From an uncultured Candidatus Saccharibacteria bacterium (GTDB lineage Bacteria; Patescibacteriota; Saccharimonadia; Saccharimonadales; UBA7683): 56,590 nt of DNA. The notes beneath the pieces are model-generated. The model was not told the origin of the DNA, made no database searches, and was given only the letters and a program-made list of their open reading frames with translations. Positions 1 through 42,671 of this stretch are shown one piece after another. The DNA is taken from positions 104,046 through 160,635 of the forward strand of contig CAYNKQ010000001.1 of NCBI GenBank assembly GCA_964397855.1, written 5' to 3'. The stretch's first letter is position 1; each line of letters begins with the position of its first letter. The position numbers were made by a program, and so were the translations under genes.

Positions 1-339
1 GGACGAGCTGTTGACAGCTTCCCATTCCGAACACTTAATACGCAAACGTCTGGTAAGTTCGATATCCTTGATCTTCCAGCACAAACCTACACTGCTCAAT
101 ATGATGAAGCGCAGGGTGGTAACATTGGTGGTACTGACTCAACAAGTCATGTATCTTCAGACGCGAAGTTCAAATTCAACAAAGCAAGTTTGACTGTTCC
201 AGAGCCAATCGCTCAACAGAACGATCAAGTTATTAGCTGCTCAACTGCAAAAATGCGCTACGTAGCAAACATTGGTGCTGATACTCCAGCTGGTGTATAC
301 ACAACCAAGGTTAACTACCTCGCAGCTCCTCAGTACTAA
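1..339 (+). CDS. 3' end of a secreted surface-protein gene (5' end lies outside the window); third paralog of 438..1538 and 3682..4839
   Basis: Frame 1 is open from base 1 to TAA 337-339. It is absent from the ORF track because no start lies in the window. The C-terminus ...DTPAGVYTTKVNYLAAPQY matches ...RAGVYTTTITYIASGQF and ...TPAGSYSTDLSLIATGRF of the two downstream genes. Confidence 0.75.
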   Translation, partial: GRAVDSFPFRTLNTQTSGKFDILDLPAQTYTAQYDEAQGGNIGGTDSTSHVSSDAKFKFNKASLTVPEPIAQQNDQVISCSTAKMRYVANIGADTPAGVYTTKVNYLAAPQY

Positions 340-380
340 ATAAATCATTTAGTAAGCAGCCCGTGTAGTTCACGGACACA

Positions 381-410
381 AAACAGCCGGCCATTTGGTC
401 GGCTGTTTTA
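381..410 (+). terminator. Rho-independent terminator after the partial gene
   Basis: Stem aaacagccg (381-389) pairs with cggctgttt (400-408) and is followed by T-rich sequence. It lies about 40 nt after the stop codon. Confidence 0.7.
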
Positions 411-437
411 ACTGTAGACCACTACGCAGAACCTTGG

Positions 438-1538
438 ATGTCTAGTACAATAACAGTTATGCTACATGGTTTGTATCGCTTTCACGCACATGTTCACCGG
501 GGTGGTCACCACCATCATGTAATCTCTGAAGGAATTCTGTTCTTTTTTGTAGCTCTGATTGTACTTACCAATCCGGCATCGGCTGCTATGCGCTTCCAGG
601 CTCGAAGCTTGTACATTAATAACATTGAACCCGGCGCAACAACCTCTTATACAGTTGGCTTCAGGTATATGAGTCCACCGGCAATTGCTTCGGTTGATAT
701 GCTGTTTTGCATGGATCCAATTCCGTATCATACGTGCGTAACACCACCCGGGCTCAATGTCTCAAATGCAGTGCTGACTAGTCAGACTGGAGAAGACGGC
801 TTCTCGATCCTGACAAAATCTACAAACCATATTGTATTAACCCGTCCACCAGGTACCGTTACTACTACGGATTCGTCATATACGTTTGACAACATCGTAA
901 ACCCAACCACAACTCAGTCGTTTGCGATTCGCCTGAGGAGTCATACGACATCGAATGCCACGGGTCCACAAGTAGACTTTGGTTCCGTCATGGGCCAAAT
1001 CACAAACGGGATTGTCATACAAACCCAGGTGCCCCCAATGTTGATATTCTGTGTGGCAGAAGAAGTTTCCGAAAACTGTACCGATACGAACGAGAACTAC
1101 TATACAGACATGGGTGAGTTGAATCCTCGACAAACACTTACTGCACAGTCCCAGATGGCAGTGGGCACGAATGCTAGTGGAGGGTTTGTAGTTACCGCCA
1201 ATGGTACGCCAATGAGTGCTGGTACAAATGTTATTGACTCTCTTGCTACACCAACAGAGAGCAAGCCTGGCAGCAATCAGTTTGGCATTAATCTCGTTGC
1301 CAATAGCAGCCCCGCAATTGGAGTTGACCCGGAGGGGACATGGGCCAACGCAACGCCATCTTTAAGTTACGGTACGCCTAATAAGTATAAGTTTGTAACA
1401 GGTGATATTGTAGCGTCTTCACCAAATGTAAGTCTTATGAAAAAGTTCACCGTAAGCTACATAGTTAATTCGAACGAACAACTAAGAGCTGGTGTGTATA
1501 CTACAACGATAACCTACATAGCCAGCGGGCAATTTTAA
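438..1538 (+). CDS. Secreted surface protein, paralog A (uncharacterised family)
   Basis: 366-aa ORF with a signal-like hydrophobic segment ILFFFVALIVLTNPASAA. It aligns by eye with 3682..4839 through FC..P....C..P.G..VS, NIVNP, FCVA....NC, FG[IV][NK]LV and the C-terminal AG.Y.T....A.G.F. The start is uncertain because no SD precedes ATG 438. Confidence 0.8.
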   Translation: MSSTITVMLHGLYRFHAHVHRGGHHHHVISEGILFFFVALIVLTNPASAAMRFQARSLYINNIEPGATTSYTVGFRYMSPPAIASVDMLFCMDPIPYHTCVTPPGLNVSNAVLTSQTGEDGFSILTKSTNHIVLTRPPGTVTTTDSSYTFDNIVNPTTTQSFAIRLRSHTTSNATGPQVDFGSVMGQITNGIVIQTQVPPMLIFCVAEEVSENCTDTNENYYTDMGELNPRQTLTAQSQMAVGTNASGGFVVTANGTPMSAGTNVIDSLATPTESKPGSNQFGINLVANSSPAIGVDPEGTWANATPSLSYGTPNKYKFVTGDIVASSPNVSLMKKFTVSYIVNSNEQLRAGVYTTTITYIASGQF

Positions 1539-1592
1539 TGCTACAATGCTGCTTATACTTAAAAGATGTAAAATGTGAGGAGAGTTGAACCA

Positions 1593-2639
1593 ATGAAACG
1601 TATAAAAAGTCTAGTTATTGCCGCGCTTGTGGTTGTGGCCACTCTGAGTGCAGCATACACTCCGGTTTCTGCCCAATCATCGGCCGCACTGAGTATTGTT
1701 CCAAAAAAGAACTACACGGTTGAACCCGGTAAAACAGTTAAAGACACCCTAGTTATTCGAAACCTTGACGATCAGAAGACGCTAGAACTGACGCTTCGGG
1801 TAGTAGACTTCACCTTCATTGACGATGGCGGTTCCCCAAAACTGATGCTGGAAGAAGACGCTCCTCAAACAACGTGGTCGTTGAAGCCATTTCTAAAGAT
1901 CCCTCAAACAGTAAAGATCCCACCAAAAGCAAGCAAAACTCTAGACATGAGTGTTACTATTCCCGCCAAGCACGGCGCGGGTAGCTACTATAGTGCTATC
2001 GTGTACTCAACTGGTGCTCCAGATGGTGGTAATGTTGGCCTGAGTGCTTCTGGCGTAACCCTGGTCTTTGCATCTGTGCCGGGCACTGTAAACGAAAACC
2101 TTAAGCTTGAAAAGTTCGGTGCCTATAACGGTACTCAGGGTAAGGACGGCTACATGTTTATTACTGCAGAAAAACCCGAGCGAATGGCCTATACTCTTAA
2201 GAACAATGGTAACGTTACCCAGAGTCCGGTTGGTAGCATCACACTTAAGCACATGTTTGGTCAAAAGCAGGTTATTACTGATATCAACCCGAACGAATCA
2301 CTTGCGCTTATTGGTCAGTCTCGTACGTTCATATCGTGTATTAAACTCAAATCAGAATCGGTTGATTTAGAGGGTTCAAAATCTCGAACCAAGGCATGCA
2401 CCTCTCCCAGTCTTTGGCCGGGCCGTTACTCAGCCGATCTTAATATCTTTTATGGCCAAAATGGCAACCGTACACAAGAAATTGTAGGATCTGCATCATT
2501 TTGGTACATGCCGCTGTGGTTCATAATTGTGTTGGCAATTCTGGCTGTGGCAATTGCATACGTTATTTGGCGAGTAGTTGGTAAGGTACGCGGCAAGTCG
2601 GGCCCTAAGACTAAAAAATCATCACGACGAAAATGGTAA
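1593..2639 (+). CDS. C-terminally membrane-anchored surface protein, paralog B (DUF916/DUF3324-like architecture)
   Basis: The ORF-track start at 1575 is GTG, whereas ATG 1593 sits 10 nt after GAGGAG (1577-1582). Signal peptide MKRIKSLVIAALVVVATLSAAYTPVSA. C-terminal TM WFIIVLAILAVAIAYVIW is followed by a basic tail. The beta-rich N-terminus LSIVPKKNYTVEPGKTVKDTLVIRN recalls WxL-cluster CscA-type and PapD-like Ig folds (from memory, not searched). Paralog of 4839..5906. Confidence 0.8.
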   Translation: MKRIKSLVIAALVVVATLSAAYTPVSAQSSAALSIVPKKNYTVEPGKTVKDTLVIRNLDDQKTLELTLRVVDFTFIDDGGSPKLMLEEDAPQTTWSLKPFLKIPQTVKIPPKASKTLDMSVTIPAKHGAGSYYSAIVYSTGAPDGGNVGLSASGVTLVFASVPGTVNENLKLEKFGAYNGTQGKDGYMFITAEKPERMAYTLKNNGNVTQSPVGSITLKHMFGQKQVITDINPNESLALIGQSRTFISCIKLKSESVDLEGSKSRTKACTSPSLWPGRYSADLNIFYGQNGNRTQEIVGSASFWYMPLWFIIVLAILAVAIAYVIWRVVGKVRGKSGPKTKKSSRRKW

Positions 2640-2689
2640 CACAGTAGCCCTTTTGTAAGCGCTGCGGGCGCGTTACAATAAGCATAAGC

Positions 2690-3604
2690 ATGGTACACAA
2701 AATTCGTTACGGCACAAAACAGATACTCCTGATTACGATTGGGATGTTTCTGTTTGTGCTGCTGGTTTCTGTAAGATCTGTATCAGCGATTACGCCAATT
2801 CCTACACCTGAACCAAAGCCGGGTTCACACGGACTTGAGGCTACTAAAAAACAAGCGCCACCAACACAAGGGGCGACCATTACAACTCCTGGAAACGGAG
2901 CATCGTTTACGACTTCGCCGATCACTGTTAACGGTATATGTCCAAACGGACTATTGGTACAGGTATATAACAACGGTGTGATGGTTGGCTCGGTAATGTG
3001 CACGAACGGCAGTTTTAGGGTAGAAGTGGGCTTATTTGCTGGCACAAATGAACTCAGTGCCGTAGTCTATGACGACCTTGATCAACCCGGCCCGATCTCA
3101 AATATCGTTACTGTTACGTACACCGACACTCGCTTCACGGCTTTTGGTGCACTAGTAACTCTCACAAGTTCGTACGGTCGGAGATCAGCTGCAACAGGCA
3201 GTGAACTAAATTGGCCCCTCCAGCTTTCTGGCGGTACTGGGCCGTATGCATTTAGTATTGACTGGAGCGATGGCTCTTCGCCTGAGCTTAAGAGTCAGGC
3301 GCTTACAGGCTTGGTAACGATTGCGCATGCTTACAAAAAAGCTGGGATATATCAGGTTAACGTAAAAGCAACTGATGTGAACGGAGTGACCGCCTTCTTG
3401 CAAGTTATCGCAGTCTCAAATGGTAAGGTCGATTCAACACCTGACGCCGCTGCTGCTGGTAAAAGTGCTACAAAAGTGCTGTGGGTTCCAGCTGTTGTGG
3501 CTCTGGTGCTACTTCCACCAACATATTGGCTTGGTAAGCGTAGTCAAATGGTGACGTTACGCAACAAAATGCTTAAAGAACGCGACAGTTACGGAGAAAA
3601 GTAG
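2690..3604 (+). CDS. Membrane-anchored surface protein with a bacterial Ig-like domain and a PKD-like domain
   Basis: N-terminal signal/TM segment ILLITIGMFLFVLLVSVRSVSA. Ig-like block ATITTPGNGASFTTSPITVNGICPNG...NELSAVVYD. PKD-like block YAFSIDWSDGSSPE...HAYKKAGIYQVNVKATDVNG. C-terminal TM VLWVPAVVALVLL. Confidence 0.75.
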   Translation: MVHKIRYGTKQILLITIGMFLFVLLVSVRSVSAITPIPTPEPKPGSHGLEATKKQAPPTQGATITTPGNGASFTTSPITVNGICPNGLLVQVYNNGVMVGSVMCTNGSFRVEVGLFAGTNELSAVVYDDLDQPGPISNIVTVTYTDTRFTAFGALVTLTSSYGRRSAATGSELNWPLQLSGGTGPYAFSIDWSDGSSPELKSQALTGLVTIAHAYKKAGIYQVNVKATDVNGVTAFLQVIAVSNGKVDSTPDAAAAGKSATKVLWVPAVVALVLLPPTYWLGKRSQMVTLRNKMLKERDSYGEK

Positions 3605-3626
3605 CCTTACAGTCAGTAGCTGCTGT

Positions 3627-3657
3627 TTGACAAGCGTAAGTACTACCGTGATAAACT
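3627..3657 (+). promoter_or_regulatory. Candidate sigma70-type promoter for the second module
   Basis: TTGACA at 3627-3632 and TGaTAAACT (extended -10) at 3649-3657. The 19-nt spacing is longer than optimal. Confidence 0.35.
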
Positions 3658-3681
3658 GTAGCTAGTTACAAGGCAACAAAA

Positions 3682-4839
3682 ATGAATGAGGCTGTGAGGG
3701 AACGAAGCGTGAACTCTTCCAGAGTACTAAACCGGCGAGTGGGATACGTAGCGATTATTGTATTCATACTACTACTCACTTTTGTAATGTCAGCGCTTGC
3801 ATCAGCTTCTCTGGTGACAGAGCGTTCGATTGAGCCCAGTAGCTCATCCGTTTCAGCCACCAACGTAACGTACGGAGTTAATTTTACTTCAGTCGATGCG
3901 GCCAATGCTTTCGTGATTGATTTTTGCAGTAATACACCACTGATTGGTCAGACGTGCACATCACCAACTGGCTTTGATGTTTCTGCAGCTGATGCAACGA
4001 CAACTGGCTTTACCGAGGAACAGGCTCTCGACAACAACACGCTACGTATCACGGGCTCAATTGCAGCGACAACTGCCGTATCAGTTAATGTAACTGGTAT
4101 CGTTAACCCCTCAGTAGCTGGCCCAATGTATGCTCGTATTGTCACTTATGATAGCGACACAAATGCGGACACATACCAATCTGACGATTTGGGAAGTGGT
4201 GTAGTCGACAGCGGCAGCGTAGCCATGTCGATCACTCCTACAATAGGAGTATCGGGGTCTGTGCTGGAGAGCATGACATTCTGTGTAGCTAAAAACATGA
4301 TCAGTGCCAACTGTGATCTGACAGATAATCAACCACCAGCTATTAAGCTTGGTGAGGTTGTCGGAGACAACACGGTTTTAAGTACAGATGTAAGCGAAGG
4401 CATTATCTATACGCAGATTTCAACCAATGCGGTAAGCGGCGCAGTAGTCAGTCTTAAGAGTGGTGCTACAGGGTGCGGTGGGTTGCGACGGATGGGCGCC
4501 CCATCTGCTTGTGATATTGCGCCTGCACAGACTAGCGGTATCTCTCCTGGCGAGGCAAAGTTTGGTGTGAAACTGGTCCCAGCGGCAAACACAGGCTCAA
4601 ATCCTGGAGGCATACTGCGGGCAATCAATAATTATAATGATTCAACTTTTACACTAAACTACACGGTGGGTGATACGGCCGGGGTGACTGGTGCCTATGG
4701 TGACCCGTTCTTCGATACCAATGGCGGGCCGGCTAATGGCAAAAATATGGCACTCACCTTCGGCGCTGCCATTAGTCAGACCACACCCGCAGGTTCGTAC
4801 TCAACTGACCTTAGTTTGATTGCAACGGGCAGGTTCTGA
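3682..4839 (+). CDS. Secreted surface protein, paralog A'
   Basis: 385-aa ORF with signal/TM segment VGYVAIIVFILLLTFVMSALASA. It shares the conserved Cys pairs and C-terminal motif of 438..1538. Confidence 0.85.
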   Translation: MNEAVRERSVNSSRVLNRRVGYVAIIVFILLLTFVMSALASASLVTERSIEPSSSSVSATNVTYGVNFTSVDAANAFVIDFCSNTPLIGQTCTSPTGFDVSAADATTTGFTEEQALDNNTLRITGSIAATTAVSVNVTGIVNPSVAGPMYARIVTYDSDTNADTYQSDDLGSGVVDSGSVAMSITPTIGVSGSVLESMTFCVAKNMISANCDLTDNQPPAIKLGEVVGDNTVLSTDVSEGIIYTQISTNAVSGAVVSLKSGATGCGGLRRMGAPSACDIAPAQTSGISPGEAKFGVKLVPAANTGSNPGGILRAINNYNDSTFTLNYTVGDTAGVTGAYGDPFFDTNGGPANGKNMALTFGAAISQTTPAGSYSTDLSLIATGRF

Positions 4840-5906
4840 TGTCATCAAACAGGTCGGATTACAGTTCAGCACAATTACGGGGAGCGTGGATAGTGCTAAA
4901 TCAACCTATCCGAACGGGTATTTATACGATTATGGCTGCTGTAGCGGTGATCGTTTCGCTTTTTGGTCAGGGACTGCCCGCAGAGGCTACCCCAGGTAAT
5001 TCACCTAACGTGCTCAAGGTTTCGCCAGTACGTAGCGATATTGAAGTTCAGCCAGGCACGAGTAAGGCGGTTCGGACAATAATTACAAATCTTACCAAGG
5101 CACCAATTACGGTTCGTCCTGTAGGGAATGATTTCATTGCGGGAGACGAGCGAGGCACCCCGGCCCTTATCTTAGACGGTGATTCATTCGCACCAACCCA
5201 TAGCTTGAAACGCTTCATGGCTCCGTTGTCTGAGGTGACTATTCCAGCAAGCCAAGACAAGGTAGTGAACGTGGTCATAACAGTGCCGAAAGATGCTCAG
5301 GCTGGTGGTTATTTTGGAGCTATTCGCTTTGTGCCGACCACTCCAAATAGCGGCGAACAGGTTAATCTAAGTGGCAGCGTGGCCTCGCTTATGCTACTGA
5401 AAGTTCCTGGTGATTTGGTTGAAAAACTCGACCTTACCGATTTTGAGATTCAGCAGAAGAGTAAATCGGGAGCGTACTTTCATAGTCCAGATAATCTGCA
5501 GGTCACGGTTCGTTTTGCCAATAAAGGCAACGTACAGGTTGGTCCGTTTGGGAAAGTATCTGTTAAATCAGGCAATGAAGTTGTCTATGAAGCTGATTTC
5601 AACACGAAAGATCCGCGGGATATGGCGTTACCCGACGGAGCCCGCCGGTGGGATATTCCGCTAGAGAAGATTGGTACGTTCGGTAAGTATACCGTAAGCG
5701 CAACCTTTACCTATGGGCAAAAGAACCAAACGGTTGAGGTTACAAAATCATTCTGGGTAATCCCAACGGGTATTGTTATAGCAGGGATTTTAGTAGTAGC
5801 TTTACTCATAGCCGTGTTTATTGGTACTTGGCTGTACTTGCGTCGTCGCAGGTTGCGCGCGCTTCACGGTCACGCTCGCGGGGGTAATGGCTATAAGCGC
5901 TATTAG
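4839..5906 (+). CDS. C-terminally membrane-anchored surface protein, paralog B'
   Basis: Its ATG overlaps the upstream TGA (ATGA-type coupling at 4837-4841). N-terminal TM/signal IYTIMAAVAVIVSLFG. Block LKVSPVRSDIEVQPGTSKAVRTIITN parallels 1593..2639. C-terminal TM IVIAGILVVALLIAVFIGTWLY is followed by RRRR. Confidence 0.85.
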   Translation: MSSNRSDYSSAQLRGAWIVLNQPIRTGIYTIMAAVAVIVSLFGQGLPAEATPGNSPNVLKVSPVRSDIEVQPGTSKAVRTIITNLTKAPITVRPVGNDFIAGDERGTPALILDGDSFAPTHSLKRFMAPLSEVTIPASQDKVVNVVITVPKDAQAGGYFGAIRFVPTTPNSGEQVNLSGSVASLMLLKVPGDLVEKLDLTDFEIQQKSKSGAYFHSPDNLQVTVRFANKGNVQVGPFGKVSVKSGNEVVYEADFNTKDPRDMALPDGARRWDIPLEKIGTFGKYTVSATFTYGQKNQTVEVTKSFWVIPTGIVIAGILVVALLIAVFIGTWLYLRRRRLRALHGHARGGNGYKRY

Positions 5907-5946
5907 CGATAGTATAATGAATACCAATACTAATGAAGGAGTATAC

Positions 5947-6477
5947 GTGTCAGCAATTCGTTTTACAGCCACACTTCGTAAGCTTGATGCAGCTGAAAAG
6001 GTCGGATCGGGAGTTATTGTGGCCTTGCCAAAAGAGGCAAGCCTAGAGCTGCCGTCACGAGGCATGGTTATGATTGAGGGGTCAGTTAATGACGCTCATT
6101 TTCGTGCACCGCTAGAGCCGGATGGTCAAGGAAGTCACTGGTTTAAAGTCGATAAAGATATGCGCAGTGTAGTTGGAATAGACGTAGGTGAAGCCGCTAC
6201 CTTTAATATTGCATCAACCAAACAGTGGCCAGATCCAGAGGTCCCAGACGATCTGCAACGTGCGCTGCAGGCTGATCAAGAGGCGAACGAAATGTGGTCA
6301 AAAATCACTCCAATGGCACGATGGGATTGGATTCGTTGGATGGACGCAGTTGTACTAGAAAAAACCCGCAAAGAACGCCCGGAGAAGCTCTGTTCGATGC
6401 TTCGTGCAGGAAAGCGGAGGCCATGCTGTTTCAATCGTGCTTACCGCGCCATGCCGCGTGCTGCGGAGTTGCTTTAG
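5947..6477 (+). CDS. DUF1905 / YdeI-OmpD-associated family protein
   Basis: FTATLRKL...GVIVALPKEAS...RGMVMIEGSVN is DUF1905-like. VPDDLQRAL...WIRWMDAVVLEKTRKER is YdeI-like. In-frame GTG 5947 lies 5 nt after GAAGGAG (5935-5941). ATG 5917 and the track start 5821 would overlap the upstream gene. Confidence 0.7.
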   Translation: MSAIRFTATLRKLDAAEKVGSGVIVALPKEASLELPSRGMVMIEGSVNDAHFRAPLEPDGQGSHWFKVDKDMRSVVGIDVGEAATFNIASTKQWPDPEVPDDLQRALQADQEANEMWSKITPMARWDWIRWMDAVVLEKTRKERPEKLCSMLRAGKRRPCCFNRAYRAMPRAAELL

Positions 6478-7206: not shown

Positions 7207-8862
7207 TTACTGCTTTATGTGCCGTTGAAGTGCATCAGGCTTTTCGGTTGTCCAGCCTGCTGGTGGTGCAACAGTAGCCCATGCATGTGGGGCGGTATCA
7301 ATGTAGTAGTGGCCATTGCCGATGGGTGCCGAAGCGGCGATTGCTTGGTCGAGTCCTACTTGCAAGAATGTAATGATCGGGTACCAGCGTGTCTGCGGCG
7401 AGACTGCTCGGCCACGTTCTTCTTTTAGCCAGTCCGGTTTTTTAAACAGTAGATCAAAATTGAACCAAACAACTGGATCATTGGCGTGTTGCAGAAAAAG
7501 TATTCTCGTGTCATCTATTGACGGGCTGGTTGCAATAATATCTTCTCGGCTTGATGCAAATACGACCGACTTTCCTGATTTATATTTTGGTTGCCATTCT
7601 GGTGACCCGGGGTCTCTAGAATCTGTTATATTTCGCCATAGGTCCGTATCGTTAGGTGTTCCTGTAAACAATGCTCCGTCTACTGAGCGCCGAATATCAT
7701 TTACACTGCTAAACGCTTCTTGCCCACCAAACGAACCAAGGCTAAGGCCGTACACGACTAGCTTCGGTCTGTTGCTTTGCGGTAGTGATTGCCATTCTTC
7801 AAAAACGGTATCGTAGAGTACGCGACCAGCTTCTTTGGCTCGATCTTGATCAACTAAAAATGATATCCAACTTGGTAAATAAGAATACTGCTGCGAGACT
7901 ATAGCGCTACTTCCGCCGTACATATATTCTAACGAATCGGATGCAGTTGGGTCGATCCAGCCCGTGCCAGTTGCGGTTGCGATAACCAATATGTCTCTAT
8001 TGAATGCACCGGTTCGTTTCAATTCAGCTAAGGCAAGGTCAGCACGAGCTTGTGCAGTGTCCGCTGAGGCTACTCCAGCATATACACGAATAGGGTCCGC
8101 AGCAGGAGTGCCGCTGTACTGGCTAATCTGTTCTTGGGTTGGGCCCTTGCCAAGAAAAGCCCTTCCTTGAAATCCTACCGTATCCCAAGCTATAAACGAT
8201 CCGGGGCCACCGGAGCGGTTTGCGCTTAGTGGCTTGGCTGCTCCTTCAGGAGTAGTTGCATCTCTGATGCCAAACGCCGAGTCAGCTACGTGTAAGAATG
8301 CACTGAATAGAATACCGCTAACTGCCAGGTATACGATGAATCCGCTACTCAGAAGTGCTAGAAATACACCTAACCTTGCGGGCATTCGCTTTGAATACAG
8401 TCGAGCTATCTTCAGGCACATTTCTCGTATCATTCTGCCAAGATAGAAAAAGATCACGGAGACTATCGTAGTGCTAAGCACTATCAACAGTGAGTGGGTA
8501 AGCCCGATTTCTTCCACGCCCAGGAGTCGTCTGACTTGATTCTGCCACACCCTGCCTGCTAATAGGGCTCCAAGTATCAGCAGAGGAGCGGCAACCTTGA
8601 GCAGTCTCCACGATACTTGCTTAGTCTTGTGGCTGAGTTCACTCTGAATAAACCATCTATAGAGCGAGCTACAACCAAGACCTACGCCATATCCGATTAC
8701 CAAGCCAAGACCACTAATAAAACCCTGAATAAACCATGGTCTCGGCAGTAGCGAGGGCAAAACGGAACAAAGAACTGCTCCAATAGCAAAGATAGTTCCG
8801 AGAAAACTGGGCTTCCAATTTTTAGGAGCCTCTTGTTTAATTGACGTGTTTTTTGTGCGCAC
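7207..8862 (-). CDS. Membrane-fused alpha/beta-hydrolase (Abhydrolase_9-like)
   Basis: The N-terminal ~190 aa contain several TM helices. The C-terminal hydrolase domain has the GLSLGSFGG nucleophile elbow (GxSxG). The GTG start lies 2 nt after the stop of the upstream membrane-protein gene. Confidence 0.7.
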   Translation of the reverse strand: MRTKNTSIKQEAPKNWKPSFLGTIFAIGAVLCSVLPSLLPRPWFIQGFISGLGLVIGYGVGLGCSSLYRWFIQSELSHKTKQVSWRLLKVAAPLLILGALLAGRVWQNQVRRLLGVEEIGLTHSLLIVLSTTIVSVIFFYLGRMIREMCLKIARLYSKRMPARLGVFLALLSSGFIVYLAVSGILFSAFLHVADSAFGIRDATTPEGAAKPLSANRSGGPGSFIAWDTVGFQGRAFLGKGPTQEQISQYSGTPAADPIRVYAGVASADTAQARADLALAELKRTGAFNRDILVIATATGTGWIDPTASDSLEYMYGGSSAIVSQQYSYLPSWISFLVDQDRAKEAGRVLYDTVFEEWQSLPQSNRPKLVVYGLSLGSFGGQEAFSSVNDIRRSVDGALFTGTPNDTDLWRNITDSRDPGSPEWQPKYKSGKSVVFASSREDIIATSPSIDDTRILFLQHANDPVVWFNFDLLFKKPDWLKEERGRAVSPQTRWYPIITFLQVGLDQAIAASAPIGNGHYYIDTAPHAWATVAPPAGWTTEKPDALQRHIKQ

Positions 8863-15532: not shown

Positions 15533-16225
15533 ATGTTAAAAGTATCAAATCTTACAAAAACGTTTAGTTCCAGCGGGGGAACGGTGACAGCTGTCAGGGA
15601 TATAAGCTTTGTAGTGCCAGAAGGCTCGTTCGCATCAATAATTGGCAAAAGTGGATCAGGTAAAAGCACGTTGCTTGCAATTCTCGGTGCACTTGATAAG
15701 CCCACCAGTGGAAAAATTGAAGTCGATGGTAAAGACATCACCAAACTTCGCGACCTCGGGCTGGCTTCGTATCGCAGTCAAAAGATCGGCTTTGTGTTCC
15801 AAAATTATAACCTTATACCCAATCTTACTGCACTAGAAAACGTTATGTTGCCAATGGAGTTTGCTCGAACCAAGGTGGGCGGCCGTAGGCAGCGTGCAGC
15901 AGAGCTGCTTCGTCAAGTTGGGCTTACAGCGGAGAAGCATTTACGTCGGCCAGGAAAACTGTCTGGTGGCGAACAGCAGCGCGTAGCTATTGCTCGTGCA
16001 CTCGCTAATAAACCAAGCCTCATACTGGCGGACGAACCTACCGGAAACCTCGATAGTCAAACAGGAAAAATGATCTTTGATCTTTTACACAACCTGGCTA
16101 AAACTGAAAATACAACTATTATTGCCGTTACTCACGATCTTTCAATTGCAGGTAAAACTGACGTAACCTTTACACTCAAGGATGGCAAGATCACTAGTAG
16201 TGAGAAGCAACGAAACCTTAGTTAG
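15533..16225 (+). CDS. ABC transporter ATP-binding protein (MacB/LolD type)
   Basis: Walker [10 protein letters not shown], signature [15 protein letters not shown] and Walker [20 protein letters not shown] lies upstream. Confidence 0.92.
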
Positions 16226-18045
16226 TGATTGATAGTCAGTGAACCATCTGCTGATGAATTGTGGTGCCCATGGCTAACTTCTGGTATTTGTTCATTGGTA
16301 TCAAAGTGAACTGGCGACGTCGGTAAATCGGCTGTTGAAACAGGAGTAGCGTTGGTGTCAACTGCTGCCTCGGTTTGCGGCACTACAACCAAATCCTTAA
16401 GTGAGGTGTGCTGGGGAATCTGCTGGCCAGTTGGGGAGATATTTTCCAAAGGTTTGGCGATCGGGACTGGTTGCTCTGTTATTCCGTACCTTCCAACCAT
16501 TTCTGGTAGAGTTGTGTGGTGTTCTGGGCTAGAAGCTTCAAGTGGCTGGAACTGTGGTTCTGGCTGCTGAGGAAAGGGCGCTGGCTGAGGCATTATTGGT
16601 GTGACTGGCTCGGGCAAAGGTGTCGACGTAGAGGGAAGTACTGGAGCTACGTAGTTTTCTACTGAAAGCGGGTCAGAATAATAATTGTTTTGTCGTTTTT
16701 TACGCCAAATCATAAAGGCCACGAACCCACCACCGGCCAAGATGATTGGCAGAAGAATCAGGAGTATAGCCGGTGATGTCTTCTTCGCTGTAACTGCGGT
16801 TACTTTCGGCGCAGCTGATTGCTCGGTAAGTGCTAGACTGACGCGTTGGATCGGTGTATCATCGCCTTCCGGTAGGGTAACTGTGGCGTCTGTTTCTTGG
16901 GAAAGCTCATCTTTTTGTGCAAATATTGTTACATCGCCTTCCGGCAGCTCTAGTGTGGTTTCGCCGTTTTCGTCAGTGTTTTGAATAATTTCATCAACTG
17001 TAATGGTTGCATCTACAACCGGTGCTTCATCTTTGTCGGTGACTTTGATTACAACTGCAATTGGCTTGGTTGTGAACTCACTGTCAACGGTTACGGGACC
17101 ACTCCCGTCGTCGGCGGTTACGCGAATGTAGTATGCTGTGCCAGCTCGAAGTTTCTGGGCGTCGATCTCCATAGTATGCTGGGTGGTGGCTTCTGCGGAA
17201 ATTTGTTCAGTGGAAAGGTCGTCTGGGTTTGTCCCAAAGTTTATTTTGCTTGGGGTGGGTTTTGTTGTATTCCAAGACAAGGACGCCCCTCTGTAGCGCA
17301 GATTAGTAATAGTGAAGTCGGTTAGCTGTAGTCCGGTCTCAGAAGTTGGTGATTCCCCTGGGTCTTCCGGAGTGCTTCGGCTACTACCGCCACTCGGTGT
17401 TCGGGGTTTTGAAGGAGTTGGTGTAGTGGGGGTGGTAGACTTTGGAGCTGTTGGTTTTGTTGGAGTGGTAGGTTTTGTTGGCGGAGTCACGGGTGGAGTA
17501 ACAGGGGGGACAACAGGAGGGGTGACGGGTGGTGTTACCACCGGATTACTCACAGCAAAATCTGCTCTACCGACAGTAAAGCTGACATTATTTTTTGGGT
17601 AATTAATGATCTTACTCTCGGTACCTGGTCTGAATCCCCAGCTACCCGCTGCTGTTGCTTTGAATCGAATAGTTGCAAAATGGAAGTCACCGGCAGTTGT
17701 GGTGTTGCGTGTACTTTCCATGTAAATCTTGCCTTCAGCCCCTGGTGTATGTTTTGTGGTAGTGTTTTGATTAGGAAAATCTGCGCCTCGCTGAATGCTC
17801 AAAACTTGCAGTCCCCTGCCGTTGTAGTAAAGGTTCACAAAAGCAGCGTTGATAGGGCTCGGGCTGCTTACTCTAACGAGTGCGTTAAATTCTTGGCCAA
17901 CTGTGTAGCCCGCGGACGAAGGAGTGATGTATATTCGGCCACCGCTTGCGGCCTGTACGGAACTCTGGGCATCAGCAAAGTAGATCCCGCCGCCAAGCAC
18001 TGCGATCATACAGAGCACTAATATTTTGTGTACGAATTGTTTCAT
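16222..18045 (-). CDS. Large type-I membrane surface protein: cohesin-like + P/T linker + FN3-like + CarboxypepD_reg-like domains, TM, proline-rich cytoplasmic tail
   Basis: Signal peptide MKQFVHKILVLCMIAVLGGGIYFADA. Cohesin-like block RIYITPSSAGYTVGQEFNALVRV...FATIRFKATAAG. FN3-like block TITNLRYRGASLSWNT...YYIRVTADD. TM ILLILLPIILAGGGFVAFMIW. The stop region overlaps the convergent ABC ATPase gene by 4 nt. Confidence 0.8.
   Translation of the reverse strand: MKQFVHKILVLCMIAVLGGGIYFADAQSSVQAASGGRIYITPSSAGYTVGQEFNALVRVSSPSPINAAFVNLYYNGRGLQVLSIQRGADFPNQNTTTKHTPGAEGKIYMESTRNTTTAGDFHFATIRFKATAAGSWGFRPGTESKIINYPKNNVSFTVGRADFAVSNPVVTPPVTPPVVPPVTPPVTPPTKPTTPTKPTAPKSTTPTTPTPSKPRTPSGGSSRSTPEDPGESPTSETGLQLTDFTITNLRYRGASLSWNTTKPTPSKINFGTNPDDLSTEQISAEATTQHTMEIDAQKLRAGTAYYIRVTADDGSGPVTVDSEFTTKPIAVVIKVTDKDEAPVVDATITVDEIIQNTDENGETTLELPEGDVTIFAQKDELSQETDATVTLPEGDDTPIQRVSLALTEQSAAPKVTAVTAKKTSPAILLILLPIILAGGGFVAFMIWRKKRQNNYYSDPLSVENYVAPVLPSTSTPLPEPVTPIMPQPAPFPQQPEPQFQPLEASSPEHHTTLPEMVGRYGITEQPVPIAKPLENISPTGQQIPQHTSLKDLVVVPQTEAAVDTNATPVSTADLPTSPVHFDTNEQIPEVSHGHHNSSADGSLTINH
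17395..17547 (-). repeat. Low-complexity Pro/Thr-rich coding repeat (PPVT/PTKPT units)
   Basis: Residues 167-217 read NPVVTPPVTPPVVPPVTPPVTPPTKPTTPTKPTAPKSTTPTTPTPSKPRTP. The DNA shows reiterated ggtgg(a/t)gt(a/c)ac units. Confidence 0.85.
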
Positions 18046-19294: not shown

Positions 19295-20932
19295 ATGAGG
19301 AAGGTAATTGAAGGAAGTTGGGTGGGCCAACGGTCTCAACTTGAGACTGCTGAATTTCAGGTTGGGCCAGAAGACTTTGGCGCCATTGGTGCAGCCTGCG
19401 AACAATTGCTTCAAGCTAACCTTGCTCAAACTGCCTACTTTGCGAACGATATTCTGATGCATGGTTCGGTCCGACCAGAAACAAGGCAGCGTGTTTCTAA
19501 CGAGCTTGTTGGTGTGGCGATTGAAAAACTTGGCAAGCCATTTTGTGTTGAACTAGAGTATAAAAATAGCCTCAACGGATTGGTTGCAGAAAACGGCGAA
19601 ACCCTTCGAAGCCTTAATGAACGTGGTCTCAGCAGGGCTATTGAAGAACAGTCGAAAGACCCAAGGCTGGCATTTATGGTAGAGCGACGTAGAGCAGATA
19701 TTGCGTTACTTGATTTTATTGAAAACAAATTACCAGTTGGAAGTAGTGTTGTAGTGGCGTCTGCCTGCCCAGATGCTAACGACCTCCAGATACCTATACA
19801 AGTTTTGGAAGATGCCCACTATCAACCAGAGCTTGATCAGGCTATGGTTTGGATAGTTACAAAAAATGAGACAGGCGTCACGTTTAAAACCATAAATCTA
19901 TTCCATGCGAATCCTGAAATTCTTGCCCAAACGATTGCTACCGCGACCTCTCGGCCAGTTGCTGTTGACTCTCGTGAGCGCACGCCTTGGAGCAGAACAG
20001 TGGTTGAAGGCTCTGCCGACCAACTTGAGAATACAATTATTGAAACATTTGACCAAGTTCTAACAACACTTAGGGGCCAAGAAACATTTCACGGCTTAAC
20101 AAGCGTGGAACGCGGGACTTCAGCGGCAGTTAGTTCCGAGGATCTTACTAGCGATAAACAATTTATCAAAATGCTTCAGGCAACTGAGAACATTCTGGAA
20201 AGCGTCGCAATGAGTATCACCGGTGAACGTTCTGTTATCCCAAATAATTACTTGCAAAAAATACTAACCATAAAAAAAGCCAATGGCAGCTTTGAGCTTG
20301 AAGGTGAAAAACGCAGAGCAGTCACAAAGCTGCTAAACAATGCCACAACCATAGAGGAGTCTATGATTGCATATCAAGTGGTGCACACTGCCGCTTGTTC
20401 AGGGCTTTGGGCCACCATTGATCAGCTCTATCATCAGCAAGGTGGCAAGCAGCAAATGGAATTTAACGGCGGCGATTCAGGTGTTGCAATTGGTGGGCTT
20501 AGCAATCTTGAATCAAGCAGAAGTTCAGGTCGCGTAGAATACGGCTGCCCTGGAGATAGTGCGCCGAGTAGTGAAACAAAAAGTATTTTTGATATGAATC
20601 AATCGGAAATTGCCTCCACGATATTTGGTCGCAAAGTTATTCAAACTAACTGTCCTAAGTGTGACACAAAAGGGGTAGAGGCTGTTGTTGAACACGGAAC
20701 CATCACTTGCGGAACCTGTAATGCCTGTGTTGACGTGTGTACGGGTAGGACTCTGCGTAACGCTCGATTTCGAAAACGTGCTGCAAAGGTGGCTAAGAAA
20801 GCTTGGACGTTGTTTGGCTCTGTTAAAAAACCAAAAAAAGAACCAACGTTTAAACTTTTTGATTTTTCAAAAGTAAAACAATCTAAGCATACCCAAAAAA
20901 TCCAAAAACGTGAGACAATAAAGGCTGCATGA
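19295..20932 (+). CDS. Hypothetical 545-aa protein with C-terminal Cys4 zinc ribbon and Lys-rich tail
   Basis: Long ORF with SD AGGAG, no TM segment and no family I recognise. C-terminus NCPKCDTKG...TCGTCNACVDVC is followed by a KKxxKK-rich tail. Confidence 0.75.
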   Translation: MRKVIEGSWVGQRSQLETAEFQVGPEDFGAIGAACEQLLQANLAQTAYFANDILMHGSVRPETRQRVSNELVGVAIEKLGKPFCVELEYKNSLNGLVAENGETLRSLNERGLSRAIEEQSKDPRLAFMVERRRADIALLDFIENKLPVGSSVVVASACPDANDLQIPIQVLEDAHYQPELDQAMVWIVTKNETGVTFKTINLFHANPEILAQTIATATSRPVAVDSRERTPWSRTVVEGSADQLENTIIETFDQVLTTLRGQETFHGLTSVERGTSAAVSSEDLTSDKQFIKMLQATENILESVAMSITGERSVIPNNYLQKILTIKKANGSFELEGEKRRAVTKLLNNATTIEESMIAYQVVHTAACSGLWATIDQLYHQQGGKQQMEFNGGDSGVAIGGLSNLESSRSSGRVEYGCPGDSAPSSETKSIFDMNQSEIASTIFGRKVIQTNCPKCDTKGVEAVVEHGTITCGTCNACVDVCTGRTLRNARFRKRAAKVAKKAWTLFGSVKKPKKEPTFKLFDFSKVKQSKHTQKIQKRETIKAA

Positions 20933-21570: not shown

Positions 21571-22929
21571 GTGCTTGCAATACAAACATATTCACTCCTC
21601 GTTGTCGGGGCATTTTTAATAGTAGGCTACTTAGTCGTACGCTTACCGTTGCTGAGTCGAGCCTATCTACCTGGTTCGCTTATTGCTGGTGCCCTGCTAC
21701 TGCTTGTTAGTCCGCAAATTGCTGGTCAGTACTTTCCGGATTGGCAACTCAACGCACACTTTTATGAATTCTGGCGGATGCTGCCCAAACAGCTGATTAA
21801 CATTGTCTTCGCCAGTCTCTTTCTGGCTAGGCCACTTTTTCCAATGAAAAAGATGTGGAGCATGGCAGGGCCGCAAGTGGCCTTTGGGCAGATGTTGGCT
21901 TGGGGTCAGTATGCACTCGGTGGAATAGTAACGCTGTTGATACTAATTCCATTCTTCAAGGCTAGGGATATTACAGCTGCATTAATCGAAGTTAGTTTTG
22001 AGGGTGGTCACGGTACTGTTTCTGGCATGGCACCAGTTTTTAATAACCTTGGTTTCCAAGATGGTCAAGAAGTTGCGCTGGGCTTGGCAACGCTCAGTCT
22101 CTGCACGGCGCTAGTTAGTGGAGTGTTGCTTGTAGGCTGGGGGCGACGTCGAGGTCATATTAAAGCGGTCTACAAGACGAATCTTCGGGAGCGAATATAT
22201 CACCGGAGAATCATCCATGAACTTAACAAAAAGGGAGTCAAGCTCCGCGAGCATCTAACACCCAAGTGGGTGTTTAGTCACGTTGTTCTGATTGGCTTGA
22301 GTGTTCTGATTGGCTGGTTTATTTACCAAGGCTTGTTGCTTGTTGAAGTAAATACTTGGGGCAAGCATAACGTAACAGCACTACGTTACGTGCCGTTCTT
22401 CCCGTTTTGTATGTTTGGGGGAATGATCGCACAGATTATTTGGTCTAAGCTTGGGCTCTCTACTTCTCGGCCACTAGTAGAGCTCCTAAGCAGTATTGCG
22501 CTGAGTATTCTTATTGCAACCGCGGTTGCAACGATGTCGATTAATGCGATTGGTCATAATATTGGAATATTCTTGGTGCTTGCAGTGACTGGCATAGTTT
22601 GGATACTATTTGGCTTTACGGTGCTTGCACGTCATATGTTTAAAAAGCACTGGTTCCAAAATGGAATTGTTAATGCAGCCCAGAGTATGGGGATGACGGC
22701 TACGGGCCTGCTGTTCTTGCATATGGTAGATCCAGATGACAAGACTAACTCAGCAGAAAGCTTTGGTTTTAAGCAGCTGATGTTTGAGCCGTTCGTTGGT
22801 GGTGGCATTGTAACTGCACTTTCAATGCCAGCAATTATTGCTATAGGCTTGCCCATGTTCACTGCAATTGCTGCTGGAATCTGTGCGTTTTGGATGGTTA
22901 TTGGTGTTACGTACTTTGGTCGTAAATAG
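21571..22929 (+). CDS. Sodium:glutamate symporter (GltS/ESS family)-like permease
   Basis: About 12 TM helices. N-terminus LLVVGAFLIVGYLVVRLPLLSRAYLPGSLIAGALL is typical of GltS. GTG 21571 lies 6 nt after TGaTATACT (21556-21564). Confidence 0.65.
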   Translation: MLAIQTYSLLVVGAFLIVGYLVVRLPLLSRAYLPGSLIAGALLLLVSPQIAGQYFPDWQLNAHFYEFWRMLPKQLINIVFASLFLARPLFPMKKMWSMAGPQVAFGQMLAWGQYALGGIVTLLILIPFFKARDITAALIEVSFEGGHGTVSGMAPVFNNLGFQDGQEVALGLATLSLCTALVSGVLLVGWGRRRGHIKAVYKTNLRERIYHRRIIHELNKKGVKLREHLTPKWVFSHVVLIGLSVLIGWFIYQGLLLVEVNTWGKHNVTALRYVPFFPFCMFGGMIAQIIWSKLGLSTSRPLVELLSSIALSILIATAVATMSINAIGHNIGIFLVLAVTGIVWILFGFTVLARHMFKKHWFQNGIVNAAQSMGMTATGLLFLHMVDPDDKTNSAESFGFKQLMFEPFVGGGIVTALSMPAIIAIGLPMFTAIAAGICAFWMVIGVTYFGRK

Positions 22930-41372: not shown

Positions 41373-42671
41373 TTATGTGTAGTTTATAGTGTAGATTAAT
41401 TTGAGGGTTTGGGTGTTATTTTTTACCACGGGGGTTGGCAAAAGCGCCCTTGTCCCCATTCCATCAAGCTGGCACGTCGACATACTGTAGCTAGAGCCGT
41501 CACCGTCTCTTAAGCAGAACACGAACTGGCTGGACGAAACCATATCAAAATCTCCACTACCACCGTTCCAATAACTGTATCCAAGATTTGTAGTGTAATT
41601 GGCGCTGCTGGGCACGTAGGCATGCATAGACACCTCAACGCCCGATGGCTTACCAGTTGAATCCCACGCTTGTATGCCAGATGTTGTCACACTGTTGACG
41701 AAGCGTCTTACCCAAAGCAAGTTTTTATATTTATCCCAAGCTATACCAGACACACCATTTGAGGGCGGTGTGCTAAAGGAAAAGTTGCTGACATCTGTGC
41801 CATCAGTAGGGCTTAGTTTCCAAGCGGTGTAATTATTGCTGCCATTATCAGTAATTGACCATAAATTGCTGCCATCGTGAGCAAGAAAACTGTAGGCACG
41901 GCTTGTTGGTGTAAACGGACCAGTTTGAAGCACCCCGCTAGCATTGTAGGCTGCGATGCGACGATCCGAGCCGTTGTCACCTATTACCCATAAAAAACTA
42001 TTTGTGCCATCCCACGCTATGCCACGAATCGCGCTGAACTGCCCATTTACATTAAACGTTGTTGTTTGGGCGTACGTTGTTGCATCAAGCACGTAGATTA
42101 TTGTATTACCAGTATTGCCAAAAGCCTGTGTAGGGTTCGCCTGCGTAAACCGTGTCCACCATGCGGGTGTTGCATTTGTTTTCTGTTGTGTCATTGTTTG
42201 GGTGAAAACGGGCATAGTAGCTGACTCAACTCGTTGTTGTGAGTCTATCCAGCCTACCGAACCAATAGTGCCATTAGCCGCGTGTGTTGGCCAGTCAAAC
42301 ACCCATTTAACGTGATCTGGCGTGGCCTCAATTTGGGTGGGGGCAGCAGTACCGCGCCATATGTCGGTTCCTGCATAGGTACTCTTAAGAGCGTATCCTA
42401 CGGTCTTGCCATACATAAACGATTCATTTGCGGGGTCTTCTGGCAGGGTTGAATCGGTTAATACAACGGCATTTGCTGCCCAGTGTGGCTGATAATCAGT
42501 ATCCACCCCTCCGAGCGCACCGAGCCCCGTCTTAAATGCATTACGTTGTTGCCAGGCACCATTAGCTATTGTTTGATTTGCAGCAAAGTTGTGAGTCACA
42601 CATTTTTGTAGTTCCCCAGTGTGTGCGTTGCGAAGTTCTAGAGTGATAGTACTGGTATAAGGCTGCTTCAT
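41373..42671 (-). CDS. Tail-fibre/adhesin-like protein, paralog 2 (conserved N-domain + repeat-rich, propeller-like C-domain)
   Basis: 432 aa. The N-domain shares DTDY...LTDS...EDPA...KWVFDWPTHAANGTIGSVGW with 42679..44016. The C-domain carries recurring blade-like units (IRGIAWDGTNSFLWVIGDNGS, YSFLAHDGSNLWSITDNGS, VSGIAWDKYKNLLWV). Confidence 0.75.
   Translation of the reverse strand: MKQPYTSTITLELRNAHTGELQKCVTHNFAANQTIANGAWQQRNAFKTGLGALGGVDTDYQPHWAANAVVLTDSTLPEDPANESFMYGKTVGYALKSTYAGTDIWRGTAAPTQIEATPDHVKWVFDWPTHAANGTIGSVGWIDSQQRVESATMPVFTQTMTQQKTNATPAWWTRFTQANPTQAFGNTGNTIIYVLDATTYAQTTTFNVNGQFSAIRGIAWDGTNSFLWVIGDNGSDRRIAAYNASGVLQTGPFTPTSRAYSFLAHDGSNLWSITDNGSNNYTAWKLSPTDGTDVSNFSFSTPPSNGVSGIAWDKYKNLLWVRRFVNSVTTSGIQAWDSTGKPSGVEVSMHAYVPSSANYTTNLGYSYWNGGSGDFDMVSSSQFVFCLRDGDGSSYSMSTCQLDGMGTRALLPTPVVKNNTQTLKLIYTINYT

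Follow-up and report, generated by a model that had tools for sequence, protein, structure and literature searches.

Genes of the Pam pilus operon

The stretch of DNA analysed here (the window) comprises 56,590 nucleotides from an uncultured Candidatus Saccharibacteria bacterium (GCA_964397855.1, contig CAYNKQ010000001.1, positions 104,046 to 160,635). Positions 1-5906 contain six reading frames on the forward strand, and it is very probable that these are the downstream part of the pam pilus operon (pamT-pamA-pamE-pamD-pamR-pamB-pamC) of a member of the Saccharimonadia (TM7, within the candidate phyla radiation or CPR). The Pam operon has been described in Ca. Mycosynbacter amalyticus by cryo-electron microscopy, with two filaments solved (bioRxiv 10.64898/2026.03.03.709456, hereafter the Pam preprint). 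According to the Pam preprint, the filament subunits are PamA (55 kDa) and PamB (39 kDa, with three Cys pairs), and both of these donate the linker joining their N- and C-domains, with the C-terminal strand forming part of the acceptor domain. The Pam preprint also proposed, from AlphaFold and Foldseek, that PamC and PamD are PapD/FimC-like chaperones held on the membrane by a C-terminal helix and, from AlphaFold complexes, that the tip is PamT, with PamE as a third pilin and PamR as a terminator and anchor. The frames keep the names A'', A, B, Ig/PKD protein, A' and B' given to them in an earlier, sequence-only reading of the window, and all six were found at the positions and on the strand assigned there. 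A'' is taken to be PamA, A to be PamE, B to be PamD, the Ig/PKD protein to be PamR, A' to be PamB and B' to be PamC. This gene-by-gene assignment was made because the order of the M. amalyticus accessions (PamC, B, R, D, E, A, T) exactly reverses the order in the window.

The window opens inside pamA. Frame 1 runs uninterrupted from the left edge of the window as far as a stop at 337-339, and A'' (1-339) encodes the last 112 residues of a thick major pilin of 535 residues, a part of its C-terminal acceptor domain ending ...TPAGVYTTKVNYLAAPQY (the tail is also given as ...AGVYTTKVNYLAAPQY). The pamE-like pilin gene (A, 438-1538) encodes a signal peptide, a beta-sandwich at the N-terminus, a linker strand and an incomplete Ig-like domain at the C-terminus; the candidate donor (linker) strand, TQVPPMLIFCVAEEVSENC, lies at 1023-1079 with a Cys pair on its flanks. 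A start at 459 is possible for this gene and one gene call gives a protein of 359 residues. The region 438-533 encodes an unusually long, His-rich N-terminal extension of about 32 residues ahead of the hydrophobic core of the signal peptide, in which M1, H9 and E24 (numbering of the 359-residue form) are nearly invariant among orthologues. The pamD-like gene (B, 1593-2639) encodes a putative membrane-anchored chaperone with a signal peptide, two Ig-like domains of the WxLIP family, a transmembrane helix (2514-2570, residues 308-326) and a basic tail; its preferred start is 1593 (348 residues), matching the gene call on contig L074, which is described below. The product of pamR (2690-3604) is an RbmA-like/PKD protein with a signal peptide and a C-terminal transmembrane helix (3476-3532). 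The pamB-like gene (A', 3682-4839) encodes a thin major pilin with a signal peptide, an N-domain, the linker SVLESMTFCVAKNMISANC (4258-4314) and a C-domain. The pamC-like gene (B', 4839-5906) encodes a second putative membrane-anchored chaperone, also with a signal peptide, two Ig-like domains of the WxLIP family, a transmembrane helix (5769-5840) and a basic tail. Its candidate donor hairpin, NDFIAGDERGTPALILDGDSFAPTHSLKRF (5127-5216), is the densest run of invariant residues among 50 orthologues.

The sequence-only reading had described the A proteins as secreted, with paired cysteines and a common C-terminal strand, and the B proteins as having a signal peptide, a C-terminal transmembrane segment and a basic tail, and these descriptions held. 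An N-terminal hydrophobic signal region with an AxA-type site at its end was seen in all five complete proteins. A has four cysteines forming two pairs (91/100, 205/214) and A' has six forming three (82/92, 201/211, 265/277), the strand AG.Y.T......A.G.F is common to the A proteins, and a C-terminal transmembrane helix followed by a basic tail is present in B and B' and in the Ig/PKD protein as well. The junction between A' and B', given earlier as ATGA, is actually TGATG with an overlap of 1 nt (stop at 4837-4839, ATG at 4839-4841). Translational coupling of this pair was rejected as a conserved trait since the pamB-pamC spacer in relatives is mostly 85-140 nt. No RNA family was matched in an Rfam scan of the window, and scans for DNA repeats and for promoters and terminators gave nothing beyond chance level.

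The identification is carried by matches to NCBIfam models which derive from the Pam preprint (NF058578, NF058579 and NF058581). The Ig/PKD protein matched the equivalog model NF058578 (CPR_pilus_PamR), whose label for this middle gene is 'pilus system RbmA-like protein', with 380.8 bits against a cut-off of 300 and over profile positions 5-296 of 297; weak PKD matches were found with Pfam. A matched NF058581 (CPR_Pam_pilin_C, the C-domain of the 'Pam pilus system pilin subunit') with 161.3 bits against a cut-off of 55. A hidden Markov model (HMM) purpose-built from 135 diverse Pam C-domains (representatives at 50% identity) matched A' with E=1e-44 and the A'' fragment with E=1e-10. The three Cys pairs in A' are as published for PamB. 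A search with Pam HMMs found no further Pam-like genes elsewhere in the window.

Upstream genes, gene order and conservation

The exact PamR sequence is also present on a 36-kb contig, L074, and this contig supplied the genes missing from the left of the window. Positions 7312-12155 of L074 are 99.92% identical to positions 1-4844 of the window, window base 1 being L074 7312. To the left of this point L074 carries four ATP synthase genes (alpha, gamma, beta, epsilon), a 399-residue gene in divergent orientation, PamT and PamA. PamT lies at 5275-5901, 2.0-1.4 kb upstream of window base 1, and scored 275.6 bits with the NF058579 equivalog (cut-off 240). Full-length PamA has 535 residues, a precursor mass of 55.5 kDa which agrees with the published 55.3 kDa, and 64.6 bits with NF058581 against the cut-off of 55. 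The full gene on L074 indicates that the window begins 112 codons before the end of pamA. The order T-A-E-D-R-B-C adjoining the ATP synthase operon was found on four long contigs, L074 and three from other Saccharimonadia (L001, L071 and L072), and an ATP-synthase neighbourhood of pam has been reported (Pam preprint). On all four a divergent gene of 338-399 residues with faint PASTA-like similarity lies between the ATP synthase operon and pamT, on the minus strand (L074 4023-5222, L001 6235-7257, L071 1752-2768 and L072 74-1093); it may be the 'tail fibre-like protein' of the neighbourhood in the preprint.

Gene order was surveyed further in a metagenome scan seeded with PamC, the loci being annotated with our own HMMs (n=80). 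The order T-A-E-D-R-B-C was consistent in 80/80 loci, from many environments, and 40 of the 80 were complete. In every locus reaching far enough upstream pamE lay between pamA and pamD, and pamD kept its place between pamE and pamR and pamB its place between pamR and pamC. Homologues counted as clusters at 90% identity numbered 1437 for PamE, 780 for PamB and 1662 for PamC, and the C-domain profile matched 953 clusters at 50% identity. Where the sources of homologues had names these were Candidatus Saccharimonadales or Saccharibacteria. M. amalyticus did not appear by name among the top 120 homologues of A', and an exact-sequence look-up of A' found none on record. The best non-self identity in the database was 83% for PamE, 68% for PamC and 61% for PamB. 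From the values of 61% and 83% the distal shaft pilin would appear to evolve fastest and the basal adaptor slowest, which agrees with exposure to, or specificity for, the host.

Additional genes were observed at some loci. L083 and L088 have an extra small pilin (201 residues) and chaperone (about 300 residues) downstream of pamC, and L088 has a second PamR-like gene of 314 residues, so the canonical set of seven genes can acquire further pilin-chaperone modules. L072 has a gene for 471 residues between pamR and pamB (7218-8633), with faint PD40 similarity and no match to the Pam pilin C-domain.

The two pilin-chaperone pairs of the window had been described as a tandemly duplicated module. 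A and A' are 27% identical over their full length (E=2e-10) and B and B' are 29% identical (E=3e-24). At the DNA level A'' and A are alike solely in the codons of the last strand (288-323 against 1487-1522, 72%), and no repeat between the modules was found beyond the codons of this common strand and of the F-C-V linker. Furthermore, the C-domain of A resembles A' less closely than it does the tip pilin PamT, with which it shares 32% identity (E=2e-17). Because of the low identity, the absence of a DNA repeat and the PamT-like C-domain of A, the two pairs are ancient paralogues and not a recent duplication. The description thus stands in the sense of ancient paralogy, and a recent tandem duplication is rejected on the same three observations. 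A related explanation would see here only lineage-specific genes for surface proteins, recently duplicated and not dedicated to assembly, the A and B products being secreted and membrane proteins that happen to be encoded side by side. In its favour, the A-B pairs have the look of a module that repeats, and no Pfam domain is found in the A proteins; against this, the paralogues are too diverged and lack a DNA repeat, gene order is kept in every one of the loci surveyed, homologues run from hundreds to thousands and curated NCBIfam models exist. The conservation data refute this explanation and its probability is considered negligible.

Several points weigh against the identification as a Pam operon, or against parts of it. 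The scores of A' (39.0 bits, E=8e-10) and of the A'' fragment (34.4 bits, E=2e-8) on NF058581 are under the cut-off. The naming of B as PamD and of B' as PamC rests on a gene order deduced from accession numbers. Filament formation is carried over by orthology from one cultured relative, the system being known here from genes alone, and the case for a chaperone function, for the order of the subunits and for anchoring by PamR depends on the AlphaFold complexes of the preprint. Searches of PDB sequences with A', A'', B' and a PamC profile gave nothing relevant, in a set without the Pam entries 25PZ and 25QA. With a model of full-length PamE, Foldseek returned only generic adhesins of two Ig domains at a TM-score of about 0.2, the inter-domain geometry of the model being unreliable. 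Set against the Pam system of M. amalyticus, the window and L074 agree in gene set and order, in the ATP synthase operon upstream, in protein sizes and in the PamB Cys pairs; C-terminal transmembrane helices are present on the chaperones and PamR and signal peptides on all the proteins, and the NCBIfam thresholds are passed for PamR, PamT, PamA and PamE. They differ in coming from another, uncultured species of Saccharimonadia, with closest database relatives 61-83% identical by protein, and in having PamB and the PamA fragment below the domain cut-off.

The sequence-only reading had proposed a dedicated surface-fibre system of secreted subunits with membrane-tethered, chaperone-like partners, and this is supported by the NCBIfam Pam matches, the conserved order and the structural models. 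Its author knew of no such system described for CPR-type bacteria; the Pam system was described in 2026 (Pam preprint). Since Pam is both published and present in the NCBI annotation models, it is already known, and the finding is confirmed rather than new as a discovery. The present analysis contributes a gene-by-gene assignment of the locus, the genes missing upstream, statistics on conservation, corrections to the earlier reading and the placing of PamC and PamD in the WxLIP family, of which the last is the one point that adds to the literature.

Relation to WxLIP and WxL proteins

B had been likened to DUF916 proteins. PF06030 (WxLIP_PGBD, that is DUF916; gathering score 27.3 bits) gave 22.0 bits with B and 26.4 bits with B', just below the gathering score, and most orthologues of B and B' have a precomputed PF06030 match, some being named 'DUF916 domain-containing protein' by NCBI. 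PF11797 (WxLIP_HBD, the second WxLIP domain) gave no match in B or B' at E<=1. As a Firmicute reference, 68 loci were fetched by a DNA pattern for the motif NQIDKxxxYFDLK and their proteins were checked as PF06030 + PF11797 (WxLIP) and PF13731 (WxL); at least one WxL open reading frame (ORF) stood beside the WxLIP gene in 62 of the 68. Aligned by hhalign to the Firmicute WxLIP proteins, the PamC orthologues gave 98.4-98.7% (E=4e-15 to 2e-16, 221-226 columns) and the PamD orthologues 98.1% (E=1.2e-13, 298 columns), with both domains covered in each case. A Firmicute WxLIP HMM matched PamD of the window (B) with E=7e-4 and, at E<1e-3, 80 of 82 PamC-type and 37 of 55 PamD-type proteins; reciprocally, a PamC HMM matched 33 of the 68 Firmicute WxLIPs. 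The motif NQIDKxxxYFDLK is not in the Pam chaperones, and hhalign sets LKVSPVRS...DIEVQPG opposite it with an 11-residue gap. Control comparisons against the pilins and PamR were negative, bar the C-terminal end of PamR (3476-3604), which together with its orthologues aligned to Firmicute WxLIP over about 70 (71) columns (67%, E=5e-5), the rest of the protein being unalike. The cause of this match may be compositional.

The AlphaFold2 model of PamC (B') shows two beta-sandwiches and a long C-terminal helix (residues 310-343). In a Foldseek comparison it matched first 9i25_C and 9i1y (EfmWxLIP1, E=1.6e-11) and next the chaperone-usher chaperones CfaA, DraB, CsuC, FimC and Caf1M (E=1.6e-8 for CfaA to 6e-6 for Caf1M; TM-scores 0.25-0.5). 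The PDB entries 9i25 and 9i1y, released on 2026-01-28, are of E. faecium WxLIP1, alone and with a WxL domain protein, 9i25 being the WxLIP-WxL complex. The likeness of B to PapD-like Ig chaperones suggested earlier therefore holds for the fold but not for the sequence, as the PapD-like chaperone families PF00345 and PF02753 gave no sequence match in B or B'. Taken together, the profile comparisons and the modelled fold establish true homology of the two chaperones, PamC and PamD, to WxLIP, extending over both Ig-like domains. Neither WxL nor DUF916 is mentioned anywhere in the Pam preprint.

Candidate donor strands could be located in both partners. In PamC, residues 97-126 are the most conserved stretch among the 50 orthologues and show a dip in the predicted local distance difference test score (pLDDT) to 60-65 between confident blocks. 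In WxLIP the part that hhalign aligns to this segment lies in the first (DUF916) domain, and a hairpin of that domain, perhaps other than the aligned part, is predicted to insert into WxL (PMC10599100). We propose residues 97-126 as the candidate donated hairpin of PamC. An N-terminal strand that is only loosely attached is in turn predicted to lie over the WxL platform (PMC10599100, PMC9772566), and these WxLIP-WxL predictions would amount to donor-strand complementation in all but name. In the AlphaFold2 model of PamE the N-domain has a pLDDT of about 90, the linker (residues 185-216 of the 359-residue form) one below 50 and the C-domain one of 58-88. Of the 32 positions of the linker, 11 are identical in all 52 orthologues, compared with about 15% of those in the N-domain, and invariant positions are about twice as dense in the linker and C-domain as in the N-domain. 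Conservation combined with a low pLDDT is expected for a strand and a groove which fold only in the complex, and the PamE linker is put forward as a candidate donor strand.

The C-terminus of the A proteins had been compared with the terminal strand of SCPU/Csu-type and chaperone-usher pilins. At the sequence level this comparison found no support, as the Fimbrial and SCPU families of Pfam gave no match with full-length A and A' at E<=1 or with the C-domains at E<=10. In the published Pam filaments the donated strand is instead the inter-domain linker and the C-terminal strand is the acceptor domain's own. A relation of the Pam pilins to WxL domains was sought by sequence and not detected. In hhalign comparisons with the WxL domain the PamE orthologues gave 5%, a mixed set of T, A, E and B C-domains 0.5% and the 135 C-domain representatives 3%, with the last strand alone aligned. 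HMM searches were insignificant in both directions, the best E-value of the WxL HMM against 359 Pam pilins being 0.054, and Pfam including WxL (PF13731) gave no match with the pilins or their C-domains at E<=10.

An alternative to a filament is a surface complex of the WxL/Csc type. With no long polymer, B and B' would be permanent membrane scaffolds, the part also proposed for WxLIP, each holding one or a few of the A proteins by strand insertion, and the N-domains of the A proteins would be the adhesins. The homology of B and B' to WxLIP over both domains favours such a complex, as does the belief that Firmicute WxLIP binds and stabilises WxL through a hairpin strand completing its sandwich (PMC10599100; PDB 9i25), and the logic of the clusters is parallel, with a small single-domain subunit, large subunits having a C-terminal acceptor and a transmembrane-anchored partner of two Ig domains. 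However, the orthologous PamA and PamB have been solved as long helical filaments with strand donation between subunits, the linker strand, for which an adhesin that does not polymerise would have no need, is among the best-conserved parts of the pilins, and no sequence relationship between Pam pilins and WxL domains was detectable. A non-polymerising complex is thus judged unlikely, and a Pam filament is preferred. The full pilin model raised a further alternative, a sortase-type Gram-positive pilus or covalently anchored adhesins resembling MSCRAMM, since SdrG, ClfA, Cna and FnBPA are among its top Foldseek matches. Their TM-scores of about 0.2 with a root-mean-square deviation (RMSD) above 16 A signify that these matches reflect the presence of two beta-sandwich domains only. 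The A proteins end ...ASGQF, ...ATGRF and ...AAPQY with no LPXTG or hydrophobic tail, and there is no sortase gene in or beside the operon. Sortase anchoring is accordingly considered extremely improbable.

A broader relation between the Pam operon and the Firmicute clusters may nevertheless be entertained. The WxL/WxLIP systems (PF13731; PF06030 + PF11797; 9i25 and 9i1y) resemble Pam in the homology of PamC and PamD over both Ig-like domains, in the C-terminal transmembrane anchor, in the logic of the cluster and in the strand of the anchored partner predicted to complete the beta-sandwich of the subunit. They are unlike it in that the Pam pilins have no WxL motifs and the Pam chaperones have neither NQIDKxxxYFDLK nor a PF11797 match, in that WxL proteins are regarded as peptidoglycan-bound complexes and not filaments, and in that Pam clusters have two chaperone paralogues and PamR. 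Tentatively, and with somewhat less than even confidence, Pam and the WxL/WxLIP (Csc) clusters may be the two branches of a single ancient system of monoderm bacteria, whose anchored two-Ig protein completes an incomplete beta-sandwich subunit and then hands it over. On this view Pam, called exclusive to CPR in the preprint, would not be so, and its pilin C-domain would be a divergent homologue of the WxL domain, both ending ...G.Y.T.(L/I).(W/Y).(L/A)... and both having the same platform covered by a detachable N-terminal or linker strand. Homology of the whole systems is an attractive possibility only.

Proposed assembly and biological meaning

The assembly of the Pam pilus might proceed as follows. 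All Pam products would be exported by Sec, and PamD and PamC, as two-domain Ig-like proteins, would be tethered by their C-terminal helices to the outside of the single membrane. A strand of PamD or PamC would cap the open groove of each newly exported pilin until the linker strand of the next pilin ousts it by donor-strand exchange, so that the fibre would grow from its base without an usher or an outer membrane. PamT, which consists of the C-domain only, would be the distal cap, PamB and PamA would make the long shaft and PamE would be the basal adaptor. PamR would insert its N-terminal strand into PamE and anchor the finished fibre by its transmembrane helix, and the fibre would extend to the host bacterium. 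Experiments have demonstrated filaments of PamA and PamB, and donation of the linker, solely for the orthologues of M. amalyticus; that PamC and PamD act as chaperones, the order of the subunits and anchoring by PamR are inferred, in the preprint as here. The present analysis provides orthology, synteny, domain architecture and the WxLIP membership of the chaperones.

This scheme has much in common with chaperone-usher pili (Pap/Fim, CFA/I, Csu and Caf1), namely an incomplete Ig-like subunit fold completed by a donated strand, a chaperone of two Ig domains, a tip subunit with no donor strand and a dedicated terminator. Unlike these, Pam has no usher and no outer membrane, its chaperones are tethered to the membrane rather than soluble, its pilins have an extra N-terminal domain and donate not an N-terminal extension but an internal linker, and its fibre is extended rather than coiled. 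Neither the first 16 kb of the window nor the 7 kb upstream on L074 contains an ORF for an outer-membrane usher.

The genes following position 5906 are unrelated to the operon and include YdeI/OmdA, glyoxalase, Abhydrolase_9, LysM-CHAP, a two-component system and a MacB-type ABC transporter. The first ORF, listed at 5821-6477 with a TTG start, shares 86 nt with the end of pamC and is not in the operon of relatives; its DUF1905/OmdA (YdeI-like) domains begin at residue 48, thus its true start is probably an ATG at about 5917. Four ORFs encoding 432-607 residues, 16222-18045 (-), 19295-20932, 21571-22929 and 41373-42671 (-), gave no Pfam match at E<=1e-5. A large serine recombinase with Resolvase and Recombinase domains lies at 55008-56579, at the right-hand end of the window, and may mark the boundary of a mobile element or prophage.

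In M. amalyticus, a cultured parasitic CPR bacterium, the Pam pili rank 2nd and 9th in protein abundance in whole-cell samples and are thought to make the first contact with the host. The presence of a pam operon in a genome therefore says how the organism probably finds its host. The window and L074 confirm and annotate the complete canonical operon in an uncultured member of the Saccharimonadia, the logic of which had been deduced correctly from sequence alone. The homology of PamC and PamD to WxLIP also ties a pilus called exclusive to CPR to the large and poorly understood surface clusters of Gram-positive bacteria, which have been implicated in the virulence of enterococci and listeriae and in adhesion by lactobacilli. 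It leads to the testable idea that WxLIP proteins may be donor-strand chaperones and WxL proteins their exchangeable subunits. If Pam and WxL are indeed two branches of one system, the WxL proteins of enterococci, listeriae and lactobacilli may be assembled, and perhaps polymerised, by donor-strand exchange.

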